Below, piece after piece: positions 211 to 52,183 of a stretch of DNA of 52,329 bases (position 1 is its first letter; each line of letters begins with the position of its first letter). The notes beneath the pieces are model-generated. The model saw nothing but the letters and a program-made list of their open reading frames with translations, was not told the origin of the DNA and made no database searches. A program made the position numbers and the translations under genes. Source of the DNA: Escherichia phage Mangalitsa; sequence record NC_048799.1. One strand, written 5' to 3'.

Positions 211-2325
211 ATGACTAACGAAGAATACCGTGCACTGGCTGCTGATGGCGCTCGCTTGAAAGAAGAAGGCCAAGGTTGGAAAGACGTGCTCGATACGATG
301 GACCGTTGCAACCAGATGGTAGATGAAATCACCTCCGCTACACAATCCGAAACTAAAACCGAAACTAAATTGGAGACTCGCAAAATGACAACTATCTCAA
401 CTCAAACTATCAAATCCGTTGTCCCTGCTATCACTGCCCTGGTATACCGTGCTAAAGAGAAACAGAATTACATGCAGCCTCAGACCTGTGCTATTGCTGC
501 TCTTGCAATCTTTAAGATGATGACCTCATTCACTCGTGATGATGTTGTTCCTGCAATGTCAATGGTTGAACTGGCTTCTGCTTCTATTGCTGATGCCAAC
601 CGTTACAACAACGACCTGAAAGCAATGCACTATGTTGACCCGGCTATCAACCTCATTGGTCTGGCTAAACACTTTGGCTTCATCACCATGAACGAAGACA
701 AGTCGTTCCAACAAACTGATGCATGGGTTGAGCTGGTTACTACCAAAGATACCTCAGTTCCATTTACTGAGCGTGTTACCACTGAATCTCGTCGCAAGCC
801 TTTCGTTAAAGGTGGCAAAGTTAAGCCATCCAAGACTCTGAAAGCTGCAATCGAATTCCTGCAAGATACTGAGTACCATGTGGAGACTGAGATGGTTCGC
901 GTCATCCAGTCTATGATTGAACAACGTACCTACGGTGGTTTGCAGGTGCCAGAAGCAATCCAGACTGAACTCCATGTTTGGAACAATGCTGTAGCAATGA
1001 TGACTCAGGACACTCTGTTCTCTGACTACTTTGCTGATAACCGTGGTCGTCTGTATCATGTAGCATGTGCTGGTCCTAACCCACAATCATCTGACTTTGC
1101 TCGTTGCTTGTATTCTCACAATGTTGAGAACATCGTTAAGAAGTTTAACGAAGATGGTTCTACTACCATTGCATACAACATGTTCATGGCAGAGCTGGAA
1201 GATATTTCCGGTGGTGAATGGTGTACTGCTAAGCGTTTAACTTATGTTGCTCAGAATCCAGCTGGTTCACTTGCTCGCATGATGAACATGGACAAATCTG
1301 AACGTCCTTCTAAGCCATTCACTTATGTTCGATTGGCTCTGGATTGGTTCAAGTTTGAGACTACAGGTGAGTGTGATTCTCGAGTAGGCTTTGGCTTAGA
1401 TGCTAAATGTTCTGGTACTCAATATCTGGCATTCATTGCTGGTAACATGGAGATGGCTCGTGCAACAGGTCTGGTTGATTCTGAGACTAAAGCATCTGAC
1501 CCATACCAGTTGAGTCTCCGTGAACTGTTGAAGCTACTGGATAAGTCTTCAATGAAACCATCTCCTGAAATTATGGATGAATTCTTGAATCCGAAAGCTG
1601 GTCGTAAGTTTATCAAAACTCCATACATGGCTATCCAATATGGTGGTGGTAAAGCTGCGTTAACTGGTTCTTCTGACTTTATCTCCTACATGACTGCATC
1701 TCTACAGATTCCAGTTGAGAAAGCAGAAGCATTTGCTGAACTGTGTGTGGAAGCAATCCATAACGCATTGGGTGCTAAGATTAACATGTTCATTGAGAAA
1801 GCTGCTGAAGCTGCATATAACCGTTGTGTTGAACTCAACAAAGAGTACATCACCTATAAGCACACTGATGGCCAAGTTGTAATGAAGCCTTGCTTCCCAT
1901 CTCGTGAAATCTGTGATGCATTCAGCATTCGTGTTGATTCTCAAACTCGTGTTATCTTTGGTCAGATTCAGGAAGAGAAACCTTGGACCATTCGTGAGTC
2001 CAATCCAACTAAGGAAGAATTCAAACGTACCTTCGTTGTTAACTACATTCAAGGTATTGATGCTCTGGTTGCTCGTACTGTTGCAGTTAAGGCTAAAGAA
2101 GCTGGTCTTCGTGGCTTTACTCCAATCCATGATTGTTTCCGTTGCTGTTTGGCTGATGCTCCACGCATGATGGAAGTTATTCGTGCAGCATATGTTGAAA
2201 TCTTTGTAACCAACAATCAATTCGAGAATCTGTCTAAGCAACTTGGTGGCATCAAGATGTATCACGAGAACATCGTAACCGAAGAGCTTCTGATGAGCGA
2301 ACACGCTTACTACTTCTGTCAATAA
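211..2325 (+). CDS. single-subunit DNA-dependent RNA polymerase, T7-like but compact (704 aa)
   Basis: Palm motifs readable in the translation: motif A DAKCSGTQYLA, motif B KFIKTPYMAIQYGGG, motif C IHDCF; RBS GGAGA before the ATG. Confidence 0.85.
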   Translation: MTNEEYRALAADGARLKEEGQGWKDVLDTMDRCNQMVDEITSATQSETKTETKLETRKMTTISTQTIKSVVPAITALVYRAKEKQNYMQPQTCAIAALAIFKMMTSFTRDDVVPAMSMVELASASIADANRYNNDLKAMHYVDPAINLIGLAKHFGFITMNEDKSFQQTDAWVELVTTKDTSVPFTERVTTESRRKPFVKGGKVKPSKTLKAAIEFLQDTEYHVETEMVRVIQSMIEQRTYGGLQVPEAIQTELHVWNNAVAMMTQDTLFSDYFADNRGRLYHVACAGPNPQSSDFARCLYSHNVENIVKKFNEDGSTTIAYNMFMAELEDISGGEWCTAKRLTYVAQNPAGSLARMMNMDKSERPSKPFTYVRLALDWFKFETTGECDSRVGFGLDAKCSGTQYLAFIAGNMEMARATGLVDSETKASDPYQLSLRELLKLLDKSSMKPSPEIMDEFLNPKAGRKFIKTPYMAIQYGGGKAALTGSSDFISYMTASLQIPVEKAEAFAELCVEAIHNALGAKINMFIEKAAEAAYNRCVELNKEYITYKHTDGQVVMKPCFPSREICDAFSIRVDSQTRVIFGQIQEEKPWTIRESNPTKEEFKRTFVVNYIQGIDALVARTVAVKAKEAGLRGFTPIHDCFRCCLADAPRMMEVIRAAYVEIFVTNNQFENLSKQLGGIKMYHENIVTEELLMSEHAYYFCQ

Positions 2326-9614: not shown

Positions 9615-10149
9615 CATTACTCAAGCAGTAGAACAGCTAAAGTCCTGGCGTAGAGATGAAACCTTATTGGTTCGTTTCTACACAGGCGAAACTAATTCTG
9701 AATTTGTAGATGCGTGGATTGATGGCCTGTCTTGGCGTCACTATGATTTCAACATGCGGGACTATTTGCATGAAGAATATGGCATTGAATATCCAGAAGA
9801 CGGTACATATGACGTAATTGAATCAAACGAAGAAGATGTTACCGAAGTTTGCTTTGCCAATGGGCTATTCAGCATTCGTAAATATGATAAGTTCAATGGG
9901 CTGCTTGTTGACACCGATTTGGATGTAATTCTTGCAGCATTCCGCAGTGGTGAGATTGATATTTTCACTGTGGATGATTTGAACGACATGTTCATCACAC
10001 GTTGCGACTCAATTACAGAATATTTGAAGCAAAGTGAGGCACTGGATATTCCAGACCGCCTTGCACCATATATTGATTGGGATGCAATAACCAGAGATTA
10101 TGGAAGTGACTACATTTTCTCTGAGGGAATATTATTCTTAAATGCGTGA
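9601..10149 (+). CDS. acidic protein, candidate ArdA-like DNA-mimic anti-restriction protein
   Basis: Strongly acidic 182 aa; segments FYTGETNSEFVDAWIDGL and YIDWDAITRDYGSDYIFSEGILF resemble ArdA N- and C-terminal signatures as I recall them; not search-verified. Confidence 0.4.
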   Translation: MQNDNITQAVEQLKSWRRDETLLVRFYTGETNSEFVDAWIDGLSWRHYDFNMRDYLHEEYGIEYPEDGTYDVIESNEEDVTEVCFANGLFSIRKYDKFNGLLVDTDLDVILAAFRSGEIDIFTVDDLNDMFITRCDSITEYLKQSEALDIPDRLAPYIDWDAITRDYGSDYIFSEGILFLNA

Positions 10150-10381
10150 TTTAAATATTGCTGAACTTGAGGCTGGATTGATTGTTCACCACCAGCCTCG
10201 AAACACTTTCTATCGTATTCTTGGGCCTACAAAGATTAAAACTCACTCCGGAGATTGGGTAGATGGGTTTGCTTACCAGGAAGTGAAGAAATACGGGAAT
10301 CATACTTTCTTGAGTATTGATTCTTCTACTATCTACACACGACCGAAAGAGCTATTTGACTCAGATTGGAAAACACTATAG
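10142..10381 (+). CDS. hypothetical protein
   Basis: ORF overlapping upstream stop. Confidence 0.45.
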   Translation: MRDLNIAELEAGLIVHHQPRNTFYRILGPTKIKTHSGDWVDGFAYQEVKKYGNHTFLSIDSSTIYTRPKELFDSDWKTL

Positions 10382-10591
10382 TTCCAGGCGGTTTCTTCGA
10401 AGTGCCAAGCGGGTTTGTTGCTCGCATTGGCCTTCGGCATTCTTCTGGGGCATTAGTGGGATTTGATTCTGACCTCTTAGGGAAGAAAGGCATTATACAC
10501 TTATCGCCAAATAGGTGTCAAGCACTTTCTTCATTTATTTTAATTTATTCTTATTATTCTTTTTGTTTGGAATATTGGAATAATTCTTAAA

Positions 10592-31004: not shown

Positions 31005-31478
31005 ATGCCAAAACAAGATTGGTCTATCAACACTGGTGCAGCTTACGCAGGTGAGCAGTACGGTCTTGCTACCACTAACTCCCAGCGTCTGACCTACAAT
31101 GCCGAAGAAGAAATGGCAAACTTTGGTCTGGCCGTTATTCAAGGTACTGCTGACAATCAGGTTAAACCTGGTATTGAATCTGATGGTACTGTTCTGGGCA
31201 TTACTATGCGCCAGATTAACATCGAATCTGCTACCCGTCCTGGTGATGGCACTGTCGCTATCAAAGCTGGCTGGCCTCTGGGCGTTATGCTGTCTGGCCC
31301 AATCATGGTCAAACTGGTAACTGCAATCACCGATAAAGACATTGGTGTATCTGCCACTGGTCAATTTGGTGGTGTTGGCGCTGGTTATACTGCCGCTACC
31401 AACCTGACTGCACTTCGTTACCCTGCTTCCGCTGGTGATGTTATTCCGGTCATGGTTAACGTAGTCCCAAAGCCGTAA
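31005..31478 (+). CDS. putative head decoration or capsid accessory protein
   Basis: 157-aa, highly expressed codon usage, directly upstream of the major capsid gene in the lambda gpD position. Confidence 0.5.
   Translation: MPKQDWSINTGAAYAGEQYGLATTNSQRLTYNAEEEMANFGLAVIQGTADNQVKPGIESDGTVLGITMRQINIESATRPGDGTVAIKAGWPLGVMLSGPIMVKLVTAITDKDIGVSATGQFGGVGAGYTAATNLTALRYPASAGDVIPVMVNVVPKP
31466..31472 (+). other. -1 programmed ribosomal frameshift slippery heptamer C-CCA-AAG
   Basis: X-XXY-YYZ heptamer two codons before the stop of 31005..31478; the -1 frame is open from here to 31771. Confidence 0.5.
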
Positions 31479-31771
31479 CGCCACCTCCAGCACCTACAGT
31501 ATCTGCTGTAGCTGCGATTGTAACTGCGGACGCATCTTCTTCTGATGCCACCGTGACTGTAGATAAGCTGTTTACATTCGGCAACTCTACAGCAACGGAT
31601 TATGATTTCGCTGTTACTCCCGCTGTGACTGGTGTTTCTGTGGCGGCAAACGGCACTGTGACTGTCCTGAACGAAACAACCACTGCCATCTCTGCGACAA
31701 TTACGGCAACGAACAAGACAACCCCTAGCGTAACTGCAACTAAAGAAATCGCTATTACGCCGAAGCCTTAA
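31472..31771 (+). CDS. -1 frame extension encoding a Pro/Ala linker plus bacterial Ig-like (Big_2-like) domain
   Basis: -1 frame reads AVTPPPAPTVSAVAAIVTADASSSDATVTVDKLFTFGNSTATDYDFAVTPAVTGVSVAANGTVTV...; the ORF-track piece 31553..31771 has only a GTG start. Confidence 0.5.
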   Translation, partial: AVTPPPAPTVSAVAAIVTADASSSDATVTVDKLFTFGNSTATDYDFAVTPAVTGVSVAANGTVTVLNETTTAISATITATNKTTPSVTATKEIAITPKP

Positions 31772-34580: not shown

Positions 34581-36029
34581 ATGGCAATTCCAATTTCCGA
34601 CATCATCCAGGTAAACATCGCGGTTAGTCCGAACGCTGTTGCTGTGGAAGGTTTTGGTCCTTTACTCTTTCTCTCTAAAGAGTTTACACCGACTGCTGCT
34701 GAAGTAGTTCCTGTTCGTCAATATACGAGCATGGCTGCGGTGTCTGCTGATTTCCCGTCTGGTGAAATCTACAATGCAGCTTTGGCATGGTATTCTCAGA
34801 AACCTACTCCGAAGTATTTCTTGGTTGGTGCAATCACCCATGAAGACGTAGTTCCTGCAACTGCTGGTACTGTCACTGCTTCTACTGCTGCAAACCTGGA
34901 CGACATTAAAGATGTAACTTCTGGTGTTATCTCCATCAACATCAATGGCGTTGATATGCACACTGACGCTATCAACTTCTCTACCGTAACAGACTTCGCT
35001 GGTGCTGCTGCTACAATGACTGCTGCATTTGTAACTGCTAATATCCCGGCAACCGTCTCTCAGACCACTGGTGTGTTTAAAATCACTACCAACCTGACTG
35101 GTGACACTGCTGTTATCGGTGATGTTTACGGTACTGCTGCAAGTGCTTTCAAGCTGGATGCAAACTCAAGTCCTGTATTTGTCCAGGGCAACGATGAACA
35201 GTCTATCGGCTCTGACTTGTCTGCAATCCTGAACTCCACTTACAACTTCTTCTTCGTTGCGATTGACCGTGAGTATCGTGGTGGCGCTGCTGGTGATAAC
35301 CAGATGACTGTTGCTAAGTGGGCAGAAGCAAACGAGAAAGTATTTGGCTGGGCAGACTCTGACCCTCAGATTCTGGTTGTTGGTGCTGAATCTAGCTTCA
35401 AGCGTGCCAAAGAACAGAACCTCCAGCGTACTTTGCTGGTGTATGATGCGTCTGATAATGGCGACGAATATCCAGAAATCTCTATCCTGGGTCGTGCATC
35501 AACTGTCAACTTCAACGTTGCAAACTCTGCGCTTGTTCTGGCATTCAAACAAGGTCCGGCTATCAAGACTGCTGACCTGTCTCCGAACCAGCTTGCTGCT
35601 CTCGAACGTGTAAATGGTAACGCATTCATCAACGTTGGTGGGAACACTATGTTCTACAACGGCAAGATGGCTGACGGTACTTGGTTCGATACTGTTCAGG
35701 GTGTGTCTTGGTTAACCTCCAAGATTCGCGCGAACGTGTTCAACCTGTTCTACACTTCCACTACCAAGATTCCTTGGACGGACACTGGCGTTGCTCTGGT
35801 CAACCAGCAAGTAACTCTGGCACTGGAACTGGCTGTAACCAATGGCTTAATCGCTCCAGGTTATGACAACGAAGGAACCTTCTACGCAGATGGTTATAAA
35901 GTATTGTCTACCGACTTGGCACTGATGCAGTCGCAGAAAGGTGCTCGAATCTGGGAAGGTACTTCCTTCATTGCAATTGGCTCTGGCGCATTGCAGGGTG
36001 CAGTTATCTCCGGCAACTTCGTTCAGTAA
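34581..36029 (+). CDS. putative contractile tail sheath protein
   Basis: 482-aa ORF directly upstream of a 151-aa tube-sized ORF, chaperone pair and tape measure; highly expressed codon usage. Confidence 0.45.
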   Translation: MAIPISDIIQVNIAVSPNAVAVEGFGPLLFLSKEFTPTAAEVVPVRQYTSMAAVSADFPSGEIYNAALAWYSQKPTPKYFLVGAITHEDVVPATAGTVTASTAANLDDIKDVTSGVISININGVDMHTDAINFSTVTDFAGAAATMTAAFVTANIPATVSQTTGVFKITTNLTGDTAVIGDVYGTAASAFKLDANSSPVFVQGNDEQSIGSDLSAILNSTYNFFFVAIDREYRGGAAGDNQMTVAKWAEANEKVFGWADSDPQILVVGAESSFKRAKEQNLQRTLLVYDASDNGDEYPEISILGRASTVNFNVANSALVLAFKQGPAIKTADLSPNQLAALERVNGNAFINVGGNTMFYNGKMADGTWFDTVQGVSWLTSKIRANVFNLFYTSTTKIPWTDTGVALVNQQVTLALELAVTNGLIAPGYDNEGTFYADGYKVLSTDLALMQSQKGARIWEGTSFIAIGSGALQGAVISGNFVQ

Positions 36030-36040
36030 GGGTGCGATAA

Positions 36041-36496
36041 GTGAAACAATATTCTTTCTATAATACCGACCTCATTATCGACGGTGCTCGTGTAGATGGT
36101 TTTACTTCTGGTAACGCCATCATCACTGCTCGTCGTAACGCACCTCAACACCTGCCAGTGATTGACGCATATGGTAAGTTGGCTGTGGCTACCACGGCTG
36201 ACTTGTCTGGTACTATCACGTTCCCGCTTCTGCAAACCGCAGACTGGAACGAGATTCTGTACAACCGTGCTCAGCTCACTCAAGCAACTGGCTTGTCTGG
36301 CAACAAATCTCTTTGGACTCCGCTCCAGATTCAGATTGTTGACAAGATGGGTGATGTTCTTGTTAACGGTGTTAACGGCGCAATTCTGCAACAGCCCGCT
36401 ATCCAGCGTGGCGTTAGCTTCACGTCTAACGTGTGGGCTATCTTTGTAGAACGTCTTCAGATTAAGACTGGCTCTTATCCTGAAATTGGCGTTTAA
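36041..36496 (+). CDS. putative tail tube protein
   Basis: 151 aa, positional. Confidence 0.45.
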   Translation: MKQYSFYNTDLIIDGARVDGFTSGNAIITARRNAPQHLPVIDAYGKLAVATTADLSGTITFPLLQTADWNEILYNRAQLTQATGLSGNKSLWTPLQIQIVDKMGDVLVNGVNGAILQQPAIQRGVSFTSNVWAIFVERLQIKTGSYPEIGV

Positions 36497-36511
36497 TTAT
36501 TTGGAGTAATC

Positions 36512-36970
36512 ATGGCTTGTGAATTGCTACAACGTGAATTCACAAACTCCAAAGGTGAACCAGTGCTAGTCGTTGTTCGACAACTGTCGGCTTCGGCTGC
36601 ACTGTCTCTTCACGCGGAGTTGGTAAGCAAGATTGGCTCACGGGTATTTCCATTCATCGAAGGCAAATATAACTTCGCTGATATTATCTACCTGATGCAG
36701 CAAGTGGAGCATACCGTATTCACAGAACTATTCAAACGTGTTATCAGTATGCAGTCGTCTAAAGATGGTCAAGAAATCAAACCAGCTTTATATGATATGC
36801 AATTCAACGGCGAATTAATGTTATCTTGCCACGTCTTTGCATTTGTTCTTGAAGCAAACTTCCTTGATTTTTTCAAGCAAGGGCTCGAAATCAACGAACA
36901 GAGACGGTTGGAGGCGGAGGAAGCATCCAAGCTGGCAGAGCAGAAGAATTCGAGTCCGGAGACAGTTTAG
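36512..36970 (+). CDS. tail assembly chaperone (G-like)
   Basis: Immediately upstream of the tape measure gene; contains the slippery site T-TTT-TTC near its 3' end. Confidence 0.55.
   Translation: MACELLQREFTNSKGEPVLVVVRQLSASAALSLHAELVSKIGSRVFPFIEGKYNFADIIYLMQQVEHTVFTELFKRVISMQSSKDGQEIKPALYDMQFNGELMLSCHVFAFVLEANFLDFFKQGLEINEQRRLEAEEASKLAEQKNSSPETV
36868..36874 (+). other. -1 programmed frameshift slippery heptamer T-TTT-TTC
   Basis: Canonical X-XXY-YYZ in the chaperone frame; the -1 frame opens exactly here (stop TGA at 36865..36867) and runs to 37146. Confidence 0.55.
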
Positions 36971-37146
36971 TATCCCTGTTCCCAGACATAAAGTATTTTC
37001 TGCATCGTCCTATTATTGAAGATAGTTCCCTCTGTACTCTTCGTGAGTTGCAAGATGGAACTTATTCTTTAATAGATTTGTTGTTATTCCATGACATTCT
37101 CGATTTGCGTAAGAAACTCGAACCAGTAGAAGAAGACAATGGCTAA
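36874..37146 (+). CDS. -1 frame C-terminal extension of the tail assembly chaperone (GT-like fusion)
   Basis: Open -1 frame of about 90 codons with no start codon of its own, ending at TAA overlapping the tape-measure ATG. Confidence 0.5.
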   Translation, partial: QARARNQRTETVGGGGSIQAGRAEEFESGDSLVSLFPDIKYFLHRPIIEDSSLCTLRELQDGTYSLIDLLLFHDILDLRKKLEPVEEDNG

Positions 37147-40100
37147 TCAAAAAGATTTAATGAAGTTAGGCACTAGCGAGTTAATTGCTCTTGGTGCACA
37201 GAGCGGTCTGACTTTCCATGCTGGTATGAAGAAGTCGCACATGGTTCAACAACTTAGTGCGAGTGCTGCTTCTGGATGGATGGAAACAAATGCAGAATTA
37301 ATGGGTGGAACATTCGAAGATACTGGTGAAGTTTATACAGAATCTTTTGGGGATTCATCCATGATTTCAGACGCTGCTCATGTGGCTCAAATGCTCTCAG
37401 GAGCTGGTTACACAGAAGCGTTTCACAATGCAATGAACGGTCCACAACACCATGTAGAAGCAGTTCATGCATACATGGAAAGGCTCGGTGTCAACACAGA
37501 TGATGTGTGGATGCACATGCCGAAAGCCAATCCAAACTTGCCGCAGGGCAACTTCAATATGCTTAATGCCTATATGCGAGATACTTTGCAAGGGCATCAA
37601 GATATTATGCCGGAAATCCCAGGACATTACACTGGGGATATTATGGCAGAATACTCCACCAACCGTGGAAACATTGCTGACTCTTATAACTACATGGCCC
37701 ACATGTATGTTGACCGTGAGCAATATGCAAGTCATGAATTATACGCAAGAGACATTAGTCGAGTTGCCAAACGTCTGGAACAAGAGTTGCCTTCCTCCTT
37801 TAAGGAGATTGGGTATACCGCTGCCTCTAATGTAGGAAATAAATCGGCCCCACATATTTCATACATGGATGCACTTCCGCAAATTGGCTCTCCATCAATT
37901 GTTGCTGGCATTTCACATCCTCGCCAACCTCTTAATGCGTCTGGCTTACCACTTGGTTCTTATGGCTCTGGCATCAATCCAGAATATTCCCTCACTGCAT
38001 CATTAACTGGTGGCACTGGTTGGAGCGAACCAAGCAAGGCATTATATTCATCTATTAGCGAGGCTGTTAAGTCTGCTGCTAAAGTTTACTCTGGCAAAAC
38101 CGGAATGAACAACACGCGTCATGAAGTATCTGACCGTGACATGATTATGGATTCCGCTACTCGTTATGCTGATTTGGAAGAAGCTCGTAGTGGATATGCC
38201 AACCTTAAGTCAGAGCTTGCTGACGAACCTTCATATTCTGCATCAAGTGTTCGGGCAATTCTCGAAAACACTTATGACAAAATGGATGCTGAACCTATTC
38301 GCATTCCAGAAATGAAGTCTGCGTCACAGAAGATTGTTAAGGATTCACAATCAACTTCTACAGAGTTTACTGCACAACTTGGTGAAGCAACCAACTGGAA
38401 CTCTGCCAGAATGCGTCGTGAAGAACTTGCGATTGCAAACATGGATAGTGCAGGATTCAGGGATGTATCAGACTACGGAACTGGAAAGTCCGAGTCTCCA
38501 ATCAAGTTCCATGACCTTGAGCAAGGTAGTCAAGAGTGGTTAGACTTTCGTAAGCAGTACGACGTAACTGGTTCTACAGTTGGCACGTTCCTTGGTAACA
38601 ACGCATACACCCGACCTTGGGCTGGAATGGTTGACAAACTTGGAATATCCAGAAGTAAAGAGCCAAGCGATTTCACTAAGAAGATGTTCGCTGATGGTCA
38701 CAGAACGGAAGAAGAAGCACGCGCTCGCGTAAGTAAGGAATTTGGATTCAATATTGCTCAAACTGGCGCTATAACAAATGACAACTATCCCGCCTTTATG
38801 TATTCTCCTGACGGCCTTATTGGTGATGACGCCATTTGGGAGCATAAGAATCCGCAAAGGGCTGGTAAGTTTGCTGACCTTCTTAGTGGCGACCATCCAG
38901 ACTACATGGACCAAGTTCAATTTGGTATGCACGTATCTGGTCGTAACCGCGCTCTGTTCTCTCAAACTATCAACAACGAAACCCGTTCGCAATGGATTGA
39001 GAAGGACGAAGGATGGTACGAAAGAAACCGAAATCGTCTTGATTCTGTGCTTGGTCGTCTTGATGCTGGGCGAGAGTTTGTTAGAAACAATCCTTCACTA
39101 GACCGAGAAGAACTTGTCGCTGGTGCTCGTAGTGCAGTGGTGGGTGATGGCATCTGGAAGGATGTTAAGCAACGCTCTAATCGTGGGTTTAGTCCTGCTG
39201 CTGGTACGTCAGAAGACCCATTCATTGGTTCTCGTCCTTCTTTCGACCCAAATCCTGGCGGCACTTCTGACTACAAACCAAACTTTGTTATGCACGAGCA
39301 AAACTTCCCAGCTGTAGTTGGTGATGGAAGTAATGACTCAATGGCCCTTTCTGTTAAGCGTGGTATCTTAGCGGCACAGGAAGAAAACAAACAGAAAGGT
39401 ATCTCTGGTGTAGATGCCGATTTCGATGGCAAACAAGATTCCACTGTTGGTTGGAATCAGGAACGTTTCGATGCAGCAAATGGTGGCGGCAGTGGTGGCG
39501 GCGGTGGTCGAGGATATTTCTCGGCGGGTGGAAACTTTGGCGATGACTTTGGAAAGGCAGGTGGTGCACTTGCTTCTGGCATCGCTGGTGGTAGCTTATC
39601 TTCTGCATCAAACGGTGTGATGCAAGCACTGATGGCAACTCCTGCTGGACGTATGGCGGCAGTTGGTATTGGTGCAATTCAGATTGGTAACGAAGCTGCT
39701 GACTTCATGAATGATTACATTGGTCAATCTCTTGACGCTGGCGTAGCTAATCCAAATGAATACTCTTCCATGTCGCAAGGCTTGGAAATGTTGGGGCTAA
39801 ACTCCCAGCAAGCTAACCGTTTGAATCAAACCACACATAGTGCCTACAACACCATGCTTAACGGCGACCCCAGTGCCGCTGTGAACATTGTTCGTGGCAG
39901 TAGGGGATTGCTCACCATAGGTGATATTCGCTCGACTGGCGGCGACCCCGTGGCCTTAGCTCGCATTATGCAGGAAAGGGGCAAGGAACGTGGCTGGAGT
40001 CAGGCCCGTATCGCTGGTGCTGCCGAGATGGCTGGCCTACAGGGTATGGCGAGAGCATACGACCGCACGGAATACAGCCATGAGCGAGCAGGTTCGGTGG

Positions 40101-52150: not shown

Positions 52151-52183
52151 ATAATTTTTTTTTTATAATTTTTTTTTATTTTT
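52151..52183. repeat. AT-rich tract with T10 and T9 homopolymer runs
   Basis: ATAATTTTTTTTTTATAATTTTTTTTTATTTT. Confidence 0.5.

Follow-up and report, generated by a model that had tools for sequence, protein, structure and literature searches.

The question raised by the tail assembly chaperone locus of Escherichia phage Mangalitsa (record NC_048799.1, whose whole length of 52,329 nucleotides (nt) was analyzed and is called the window here) is whether the phage makes one chaperone or two, that is, whether an open reading frame (ORF) of 152 amino acids (aa) directly upstream of a tape-measure-like gene is extended by some ribosomes into the −1 frame at the heptamer T TTT TTC. An initial annotation of the sequence had described the site as a canonical tail-chaperone −1 frameshift of the G/GT type. 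This description is supported by the phase of the heptamer, the gene order, the conservation of the site, the selection acting on the −1 frame, the lack of a usable start codon for the extension and the finding of a DUF6889 domain in it, and we consider it very probable that a programmed −1 ribosomal frameshift of the kind known from lambda G/GT and P2 E/E+E′ produces a short and a long chaperone. Mangalitsa itself is, by sequence relationship, a phiEcoM-GJ1-like myophage (Chaseviridae, Carltongylesvirus): the region 36041–37400 is 98.9% identical to that of Escherichia phage FXie-2024a and about 89% identical to those of phiEcoM-GJ1 and its kin. The genes at the locus follow the order sheath, tube, chaperone and tape-measure-like gene, and in every record of the phiEcoM-GJ1 group that we examined the segment past the chaperone stop is either left as a gap of about 170 nt (36971–37138) or filled by a small hypothetical ORF, once starting from ATC.

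The heptamer has the form X XXY YYZ and lies, as first proposed, in the zero frame of the chaperone ORF (36512..36970), where TTTTTTC at 36868–36874 is read within the codons GAT TTT TTC AAG (D-F-F-K), 96 nt (32 codons) upstream of the zero-frame stop codon at 36968–36970. The −1 frame was also correctly said to open exactly at the slip site, since the TGA at 36865–36867 is in that frame. It then stays open for 92 codons (36868..37143), in agreement with the roughly 90 codons first given, and stops at a TAA at 37144–37146. What needs correction is the statement that this TAA overlaps the tape-measure start codon: the two genes do overlap by 8 nt, the tape-measure-like ORF starting at ATG 37139, but the TAA lies 3 nt past the ATG triplet. 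The predicted fusion of 211 aa, against the approximately 210 aa anticipated, consists of 121 zero-frame residues and 90 new ones; from their lengths, the short and long forms would have masses of roughly 17 and 24 kDa. Its predicted junction peptide includes ANFLDFFQARAR, and the GluC peptides predicted to tell the two forms apart are ANFLDFFQARARNQRTE for the long and ANFLDFFKQGLE for the short form. The heptamer together with its open −1 frame exceeds chance expectation, because only 4 of the 1247 −1-frame stop-to-stop stretches in the long ORFs of the window (mean 10.8 codons) reach at least 92 codons, because the −1 extension passes the end of the ORF for only 2 of the 36 in-phase XXXYYYZ heptamers in long plus-strand ORFs, and because A/T runs of at least six are depleted about 20-fold in the 52-kb window (3 observed versus 58 +/- 7.6 expected under a first-order Markov model). 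The slip site is the only such run besides a pair, T10 and T9, in a non-coding AT-rich spot at 52155–52177. That spot is near the window end; were the genome circularly permuted, it would lie upstream of the gene for the single-subunit RNA polymerase (211..2325).

When the hypothetical fusion was used as a tblastn query, it was found as two pieces in different frames in about 80 phage records, with hosts belonging to Escherichia, Yersinia, Pectobacterium, Erwinia, Pantoea, Proteus, Aeromonas, Vibrio and Shewanella. The loci of 18 relatives, covering both subfamilies of the Chaseviridae (Cleopatravirinae and Nefertitivirinae) as well as Shantouvirus and reaching down to 31–37% identity of the fusion protein, were then compared. 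An exact, in-phase T TTT TTC is present at the homologous position in 17 of them, and the remaining one, Erwinia phage Faunus, carries the variant G TTT TTC; the absence from relatives that the initial annotation had named as an argument against the frameshift was thus not what we found. The −1 frame is open for 90–97 codons after the heptamer in 17 of the 18, with the last upstream −1-frame stop 3–57 nt before it. The extension ends no more than 11 nt from the annotated start of the next gene, an overlap of 8 nt being the commonest, with the exception of Spp001, in which the annotated start of the next gene (taken as given) is 279 nt farther on. At the codon level, the Phe-Phe pair at the site is TTT-TTC in all 17 sequences considered, versus 68% TTC for Phe elsewhere in these genes, and the other Phe-Phe pairs in the window are TTC-TTC (n = 11) and TTC-TTT (n = 4). 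A T precedes the run in 16 of 17 sequences, whether the codon is one for Asp (GAT), Ser (AGT) or Ala (GCT). As judged from these codon choices, the heptamer is held by selection at the nucleotide level. That the heptamer and the open frame coincide by accident, or are the decaying remnant of a once-fused gene, is extremely improbable, as site, frame and peptide persist down to about 30% identity and purifying selection on the −1 frame is clear; on these conservation and selection data, such an explanation appears effectively refuted. Two records deserve comment in themselves. In Aeromonas phage pAh6-C (KJ858521; locus L015, 796–1212), the chaperone is annotated as 110 aa only, from position 880, and the homologous upstream N-terminal region contains in-frame stops, with heptamer and extension intact; this points to an error in sequencing or to disruption of the gene. 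PP952070.1 is entered as 'Staphylococcus phage Pel53' with S. hyicus as host; over the region of tube and chaperone it shares 89% identity with Mangalitsa, and its host assignment looks doubtful.

Which frame is translated can be read from the mean pairwise difference at each zero-frame codon position in an alignment of 11 Cleopatravirinae sequences. Over the chaperone body (36512–36867) the values for positions 1, 2 and 3 are 0.35, 0.22 and 0.60, the normal zero-frame wobble. In the dual-coding stretch (36875–36967) they are low overall, at 0.20, 0.35 and 0.27, with the peak at the third position of the −1 frame, and past the chaperone stop (36971–37138) they become 0.145, 0.569 and 0.254, which is −1-frame wobble. 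Because wobble-position variability moves from the zero to the −1 frame past the chaperone stop, the −1 frame is, by this measure, a real coding frame under purifying selection, and in the overlap it appears to be under no less constraint than the acidic tail that the short form has there. The −1 peptide is kept from the first residues past the slip, as 'FFQARARN.RTE..GGGG' in Cleopatravirinae and as 'FFRARG.SSRARP' in Nefertitivirinae. The same observations bear on the possibility that no fusion is made and that the C-terminal domain is an independent small protein with its own start codon. Small ORFs of 37–73 aa are indeed annotated in several relatives (GJ1 gp61, PM1_050, PYps3T ORF069 and Myduc gp50), and a profile search meets the domain mostly as small called ORFs. 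However, the −1-frame conservation and the wobble signal set in at the heptamer, far 5′ of any start codon. No ATG, GTG or TTG occurs in the −1 frame of the window between the heptamer and codon +60, where the first start-type codon, a TTG, has no Shine–Dalgarno sequence and falls 23 codons into the conserved domain (which begins at about codon 37). The candidate −1-frame starts of relatives are scattered over differing positions, nearly all of them again without a Shine–Dalgarno sequence, GJ1 gp61 being annotated as beginning at ATC, and the domain is joined to TAC_15 in one metagenomic protein, P0083. Independent initiation of the extension appears excluded for Mangalitsa on the codons present, and a separately started C-terminal protein is a very unlikely explanation of the locus.

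The short form is recognized as a tail assembly chaperone by both Pfam (Phage_TAC_15, 4.6e-19, 69.6 bits, cut-off 22) and PHROG (phrog_11820 'tail assembly chaperone', 2.2e-73). The extension, for which the initial annotation had proposed a profile search as a check, matched Pfam DUF6889 above the curated cut-off (1e-05, 25.6 bits, cut-off 23.9) and phrog_4364 (5.5e-18). The C-terminal block of about 55 residues has invariant L, P, L, R, C, L, S, H, L, D and L columns across the two subfamilies. In an AlphaFold model of the fusion, the N-domain is predicted with a local distance difference test score (pLDDT) of about 80–88, the linker as disordered, with a pLDDT below 50 over residues 129–150, and the C-domain as small and helical. 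The 45 homologues matched by the fusion query are all of about 150 aa and carry TAC_15 only, without a fusion, and the extension alone as a query matched no more than five called ORFs, all small. Natural fusions came to light only when the C-domain was used in an exhaustive profile search, which retrieved 111 proteins. Nearly all of these are tiny ORFs (30–110 aa) that carry the domain C-terminally, as is expected if gene callers miss the frame-shifted N-terminus. One protein of 194 aa, P0083, contains both TAC_15 (residues 9–114, 43.6 bits) and DUF6889 (153–187, 46.8 bits) in a single reading frame, and a similar one, P0108, has only DUF6889 by Pfam; each is encoded directly after a separate TAC_15 gene of about 170 aa. 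The C-domain of the window aligns with P0083 and P0108 at hhalign probabilities of 97.6% and 96.8%, and in end-to-end profile alignments of the fusion with these two proteins only the C-domain is aligned, the N-domains being linked via Pfam alone.

The arrangement in two metagenomic loci, L022 (3493–4585) and L023 (3511–4594), offers a parallel without recoding. These loci share the domain families and a homologous C-domain with Mangalitsa, their N-domains being related to its own at the level of the Pfam family only, and the gene order in L023 (terminator, sheath, tube, chaperone, long chaperone) is the same as in Mangalitsa from sheath to chaperone. The short form (TAC_15, about 170 aa) and the long form (194–197 aa, ending in DUF6889) are here two adjacent genes, and no recoding is needed because each form has its own start. 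The 8.6 kb of L022 that were analyzed contain no sheath gene, and the long chaperone is followed directly by a Dit-like gene. Since these metagenomic relatives encode the short and the long form as two genes, they independently support the view that DUF6889 belongs on a chaperone N-domain and that neither form can be dispensed with. By analogy with lambda, DUF6889 is presumably the tube-recruiting C-terminal domain of TAC_15 chaperones.

From these features, the following scheme can be proposed. Most ribosomes would read GAU UUU UUC AAG and continue to the stop at 36968–36970, giving the 152-aa short chaperone as the major product. In a minority, the tRNA-Phe on UUU in the P site and the tRNA-Phe on UUC in the A site would slip back by one base onto UUU UUU, after which the ribosome would continue in the −1 frame, from CAA GCA AGG as far as the TAA at 37144–37146, giving the 211-aa long chaperone as the minor product. 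The long form would thus comprise the shared N-terminal TAC_15 domain, a basic Gly/Arg linker and the DUF6889 domain of about 55 residues. By analogy with lambda, the N-domain may coat the tape-measure protein and the C-domain recruit the tube protein, and both forms may depart before the tail is completed; with one start for both forms, their ratio would be fixed. The sequences show the site with its phase and open frame, their conservation, the shift of selection into the −1 frame, the lack of a start for the extension and the domain identities; we infer the ribosomal nature of the slippage, its efficiency, the product ratio and the binding partners.

The closest experimentally established case is P2 E/E+E′. 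Both phages are myophages with the chaperone gene directly 5′ of the tape-measure gene, the annotated −1 site of P2 is an in-phase T TTT TTG that differs from the Mangalitsa heptamer in its last base only, and the long form of P2 ends 8 nt inside the tape-measure gene, the same overlap as here. In the A site, P2 has UUG (Leu) where Mangalitsa has UUC (Phe), so that both slipping tRNAs would be tRNA-Phe in the latter. The two systems also differ in their protein families (Phage_TAC_7 and Phage_P2_GpE in P2, Phage_TAC_15 and DUF6889 in Mangalitsa) and in size (91 and 142 aa for E and E+E′, 152 and 211 aa in Mangalitsa), and hhalign detected no similarity between the extension and E′ (Phage_P2_GpE; probability 0.2%). 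With lambda G/GT the locus shares its position between the tube or major tail gene and the tape measure, the making of short and long forms with a common N-terminus, and an overlap of 8 nt between the stop of T and the start of H. The lambda heptamer is G GGA AAG. In contrast to Mangalitsa, the lambda tail is non-contractile and its chaperone belongs to the families Phage_TAC_2 and Phage_tail_T, to the latter of which (gpT) the extension has no similarity (hhalign probability 0.4%); the ratio of about 30:1 and the binding partners have been measured in lambda. In the lambda model, the part common to both forms attaches to the tape measure and the extension to the tube subunit; the proportion of the two forms is important, and both are absent from the virion (Levin, Hendrix and Casjens 1993; Xu, Hendrix and Duda 2004, 2013, 2014; as reviewed in PMC5009743). 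In terms of domain content, the Mangalitsa locus appears to work like G/GT and yet to belong to a TAC_15/DUF6889 protein lineage.

A third comparison is with the Vandenendeviridae (Pakpunavirus) and Andersonviridae, for which a 2025 paper proposed a −1 frameshift between TAC-N and TAC-NC at a conserved GTTTTT motif, with an argument resting on the uninterrupted −1 frame and with the remark that annotations commonly turn the downstream piece into a hypothetical ORF by mistake (PMC12846349). It mentions the Chaseviridae for tail fibres only and not for a chaperone frameshift. These families have the same type of tail module (DUF3383/E217_gp31 sheath, KPP10/PhiTE tube) and a poly-T slip motif, which the GTTTTTC of Faunus fits exactly, Mangalitsa having the full canonical T TTT TTC. 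No similarity of the chaperone to those of the Vandenendeviridae and Andersonviridae was found by tblastn at 1e-5.

It could also be that the slip is made by the polymerase and not by the ribosome, that is, that an RNA polymerase, the single-subunit enzyme of the phage or that of the host, adds a U on the T6 run, such that some mRNAs encode the 211-aa protein. The site is a homopolymer run, and the window encodes a T7-type RNA polymerase (PF00940, 1.5e-18); the depletion of A/T runs mentioned above is, moreover, what would be expected if such runs were costly for the phage. For T4-like chaperones, a study cited in PMC12846349 is reported to propose a mechanism other than frameshifting. However, the run never exceeds T6 in the 18 relatives and is T5 in Faunus, whereas productive polymerase slippage generally requires longer runs, of about 7–9 or more. 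The motif reported for the related families is GTTTTT. Both the C that flanks the run and its exact phase as X XXY YYZ, which matter for re-pairing of the tRNAs and not for a polymerase, are kept, although shared descent could explain the conservation of phase too, and the nearly identical site of P2 is annotated as translational. We therefore regard polymerase slippage as unlikely. If it were nevertheless the mechanism, the purge of A/T runs would reflect a slippage-prone T7-type enzyme, and the chaperone gene would be a site of programmed transcriptional slippage.

Several points weigh against a programmed ribosomal frameshift. Insertion of one additional U by RNA polymerase would yield the identical protein, and the support comes from sequence analysis, for Mangalitsa and its relatives alike. 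An efficiency figure for U UUU UUC in Escherichia coli was not found in the literature searched, and none of the database records examined for this locus and its relatives carries a slippage annotation. The C-domain of the AlphaFold model is of low confidence, and a Foldseek comparison of the chaperone model with the PDB gave no match at E <= 0.001, the HK97 chaperone 2ob9 being among the weak matches (E 1.1, target-normalized template modeling score 0.45); a sequence search of solved structures returned one irrelevant weak match, 2wm8 (E 0.0056). Finally, no conserved stimulatory RNA structure 3′ of the site was found among the relatives compared. As to the missing annotation, it is weak evidence against a frameshift because even the RefSeq record of lambda omits it: NC_001416 (locus L019) lists T (10115..10549) as a free-standing coding sequence and not as a joined G-T product. 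As to the missing structure, lambda-type sites are not known to require one.

A stem of 9 base pairs, formed by 36881–36889 with 36949–36957, was considered as a frameshift stimulator and rejected, being without covariation or a family-wide consensus. Its fold has a minimum free energy of −25.5 kcal/mol (z −2.7 versus shuffles), the local 51-nt fold being unremarkable, and its pairs do not vary among close relatives but are disrupted in distant ones. Covariation across 15 relatives was not above that of controls, and RNAalifold gave zero consensus pairs; the conservation of the stem in close relatives is accounted for by dual coding. Likewise rejected was the Arg-rich ORF in the +1 frame, which the initial annotation had rightly called spurious. 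The frame is cut to 9–30 codons in 9 of the 16 relatives checked (PM1, Y2, PA_03, Fifi44, Myduc, Faunus, VPs20, pAh6-C and Spp001), and no selection signal is seen in the matching phase.

Coordinates of the features discussed, in positions of the window
Feature	Position	Strand	Remarks
Short tail assembly chaperone ORF (TAC-N), 152 aa	36512..36970	+	Standard decoding; Phage_TAC_15; phrog_11820
TGA closing the −1 frame	36865..36867	+	3 nt upstream of the heptamer
Slippery heptamer T TTT TTC (X XXY YYZ)	36868..36874	+	In phase with the zero frame; tandem −1 slippage of tRNA-Phe proposed here
−1-frame linker, fusion residues 122–149	36874..36957	+	QARARNQRTETVGGGGSIQAGRAEEFESG; Arg/Gly-rich; overlaps the zero-frame acidic tail
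−1-frame C-terminal domain and TAA, fusion residues ~150–211	36958..37146	+	DUF6889-type, 'T-like'
Candidate long-range stem, 9 bp	36881..36957	+	36881–89 with 36949–57; begins 6 nt past the heptamer; unsupported as stimulator
+1-frame Arg-rich ORF, 60 aa	36837..37019	+	Spurious; frame interrupted in relatives
Tail sheath gene, 482 aa	34581..36029	+	Pfam DUF3383 4.9e-64; phrog_205 'tail sheath' 1.9e-97
Tail tube gene, 151 aa	36041..36496	+	phrog_280 2.5e-32; KPP10_Orf10 1.1e-4 (below Pfam cut-off)
Tape-measure-like gene, 1239 aa	37139..40858	+	SLT and YqaJ domains; phrog_19855
Candidate −1 frameshift, cement gene	31005..31771	+	In-phase C CCA AAG at 31466–31472

The genes surrounding the chaperone can be assigned from domain matches and from the labels of their homologues. 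The tube gene lies directly 5′ of the chaperone, and its homologues are labelled tail tube in 4HA13 and PYps23T; homologues of the 1239-aa protein on the other side are annotated as tape measure in 4HA13, PP101 and PYps23T. This tape-measure-like protein contains an SLT lytic transglycosylase domain at its C-terminus (aa 1045–1149) and also a YqaJ-like exonuclease domain (aa 466–602, 1.2e-12, with RecE-like PHROG matches). A nuclease-type domain is unusual in a protein at the tape-measure position, and the homologue in ZPAH14 is likewise flagged 'yqaJ'. The initial annotation had in addition taken the frameshift as support for a contractile tail, which goes too far: because the G/GT arrangement is common to non-contractile (lambda) and contractile (P2) long tails, the frameshift does not by itself speak for a contractile tail. 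That the tail is contractile is indicated instead by the DUF3383 sheath gene (34581..36029).

Upstream in the window, a second site was noted in the head cement gene. The cement ORF (31005..31478, 157 aa; Pfam Phage_cement 1.1e-16) has an in-phase heptamer C CCA AAG two codons before its stop, from which the −1 frame runs for 101 codons to 31771 and engulfs a 72-aa 'ORF' (31553..31771). In the extension, a match to phrog_13745 'Ig domain containing protein' (2.1e-8) was found, Ig standing for immunoglobulin. The same in-phase C CCA AAG with an extension of 98–101 codons is found in Faunus, Y2, PM1 and ST32, whose records either treat the distal part as an Ig-domain protein of its own or leave it unannotated. 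Ig-like domains are reportedly appended to phage structural proteins by −1 frameshifting, a pattern said to have been described by Fraser et al. in 2006. The cement-gene site may be regarded as a second conserved candidate −1 frameshift, fitting this Ig-domain pattern; its predicted cement–Ig fusion of about 255 aa would, in contrast to the chaperone, be expected in the virion.

The recoding mechanism proposed for the chaperone gene is an ordinary and long-known one, and what is new is its probable occurrence in a family in which the records examined do not annotate it. No report of a frameshift in phiEcoM-GJ1 or the Chaseviridae, of DUF6889, or of TTTTTTC together with a chaperone was found in the literature searched. 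Recognizing the frameshift would add a 211-aa long chaperone to the proteins of these phages and remove a spurious gene, and it would assign a role to the Pfam family DUF6889, as the presumed tube-recruiting C-domain. Phages of this group are under study as therapeutic agents against E. coli, Erwinia, Pectobacterium and Aeromonas, and correct annotation of their structural genes may be of some practical value. Within the TAC_15/DUF6889 family, the encoding of the two forms by recoding in some members and by two genes in others offers a natural comparison for why a fixed ratio of short to long chaperone matters.

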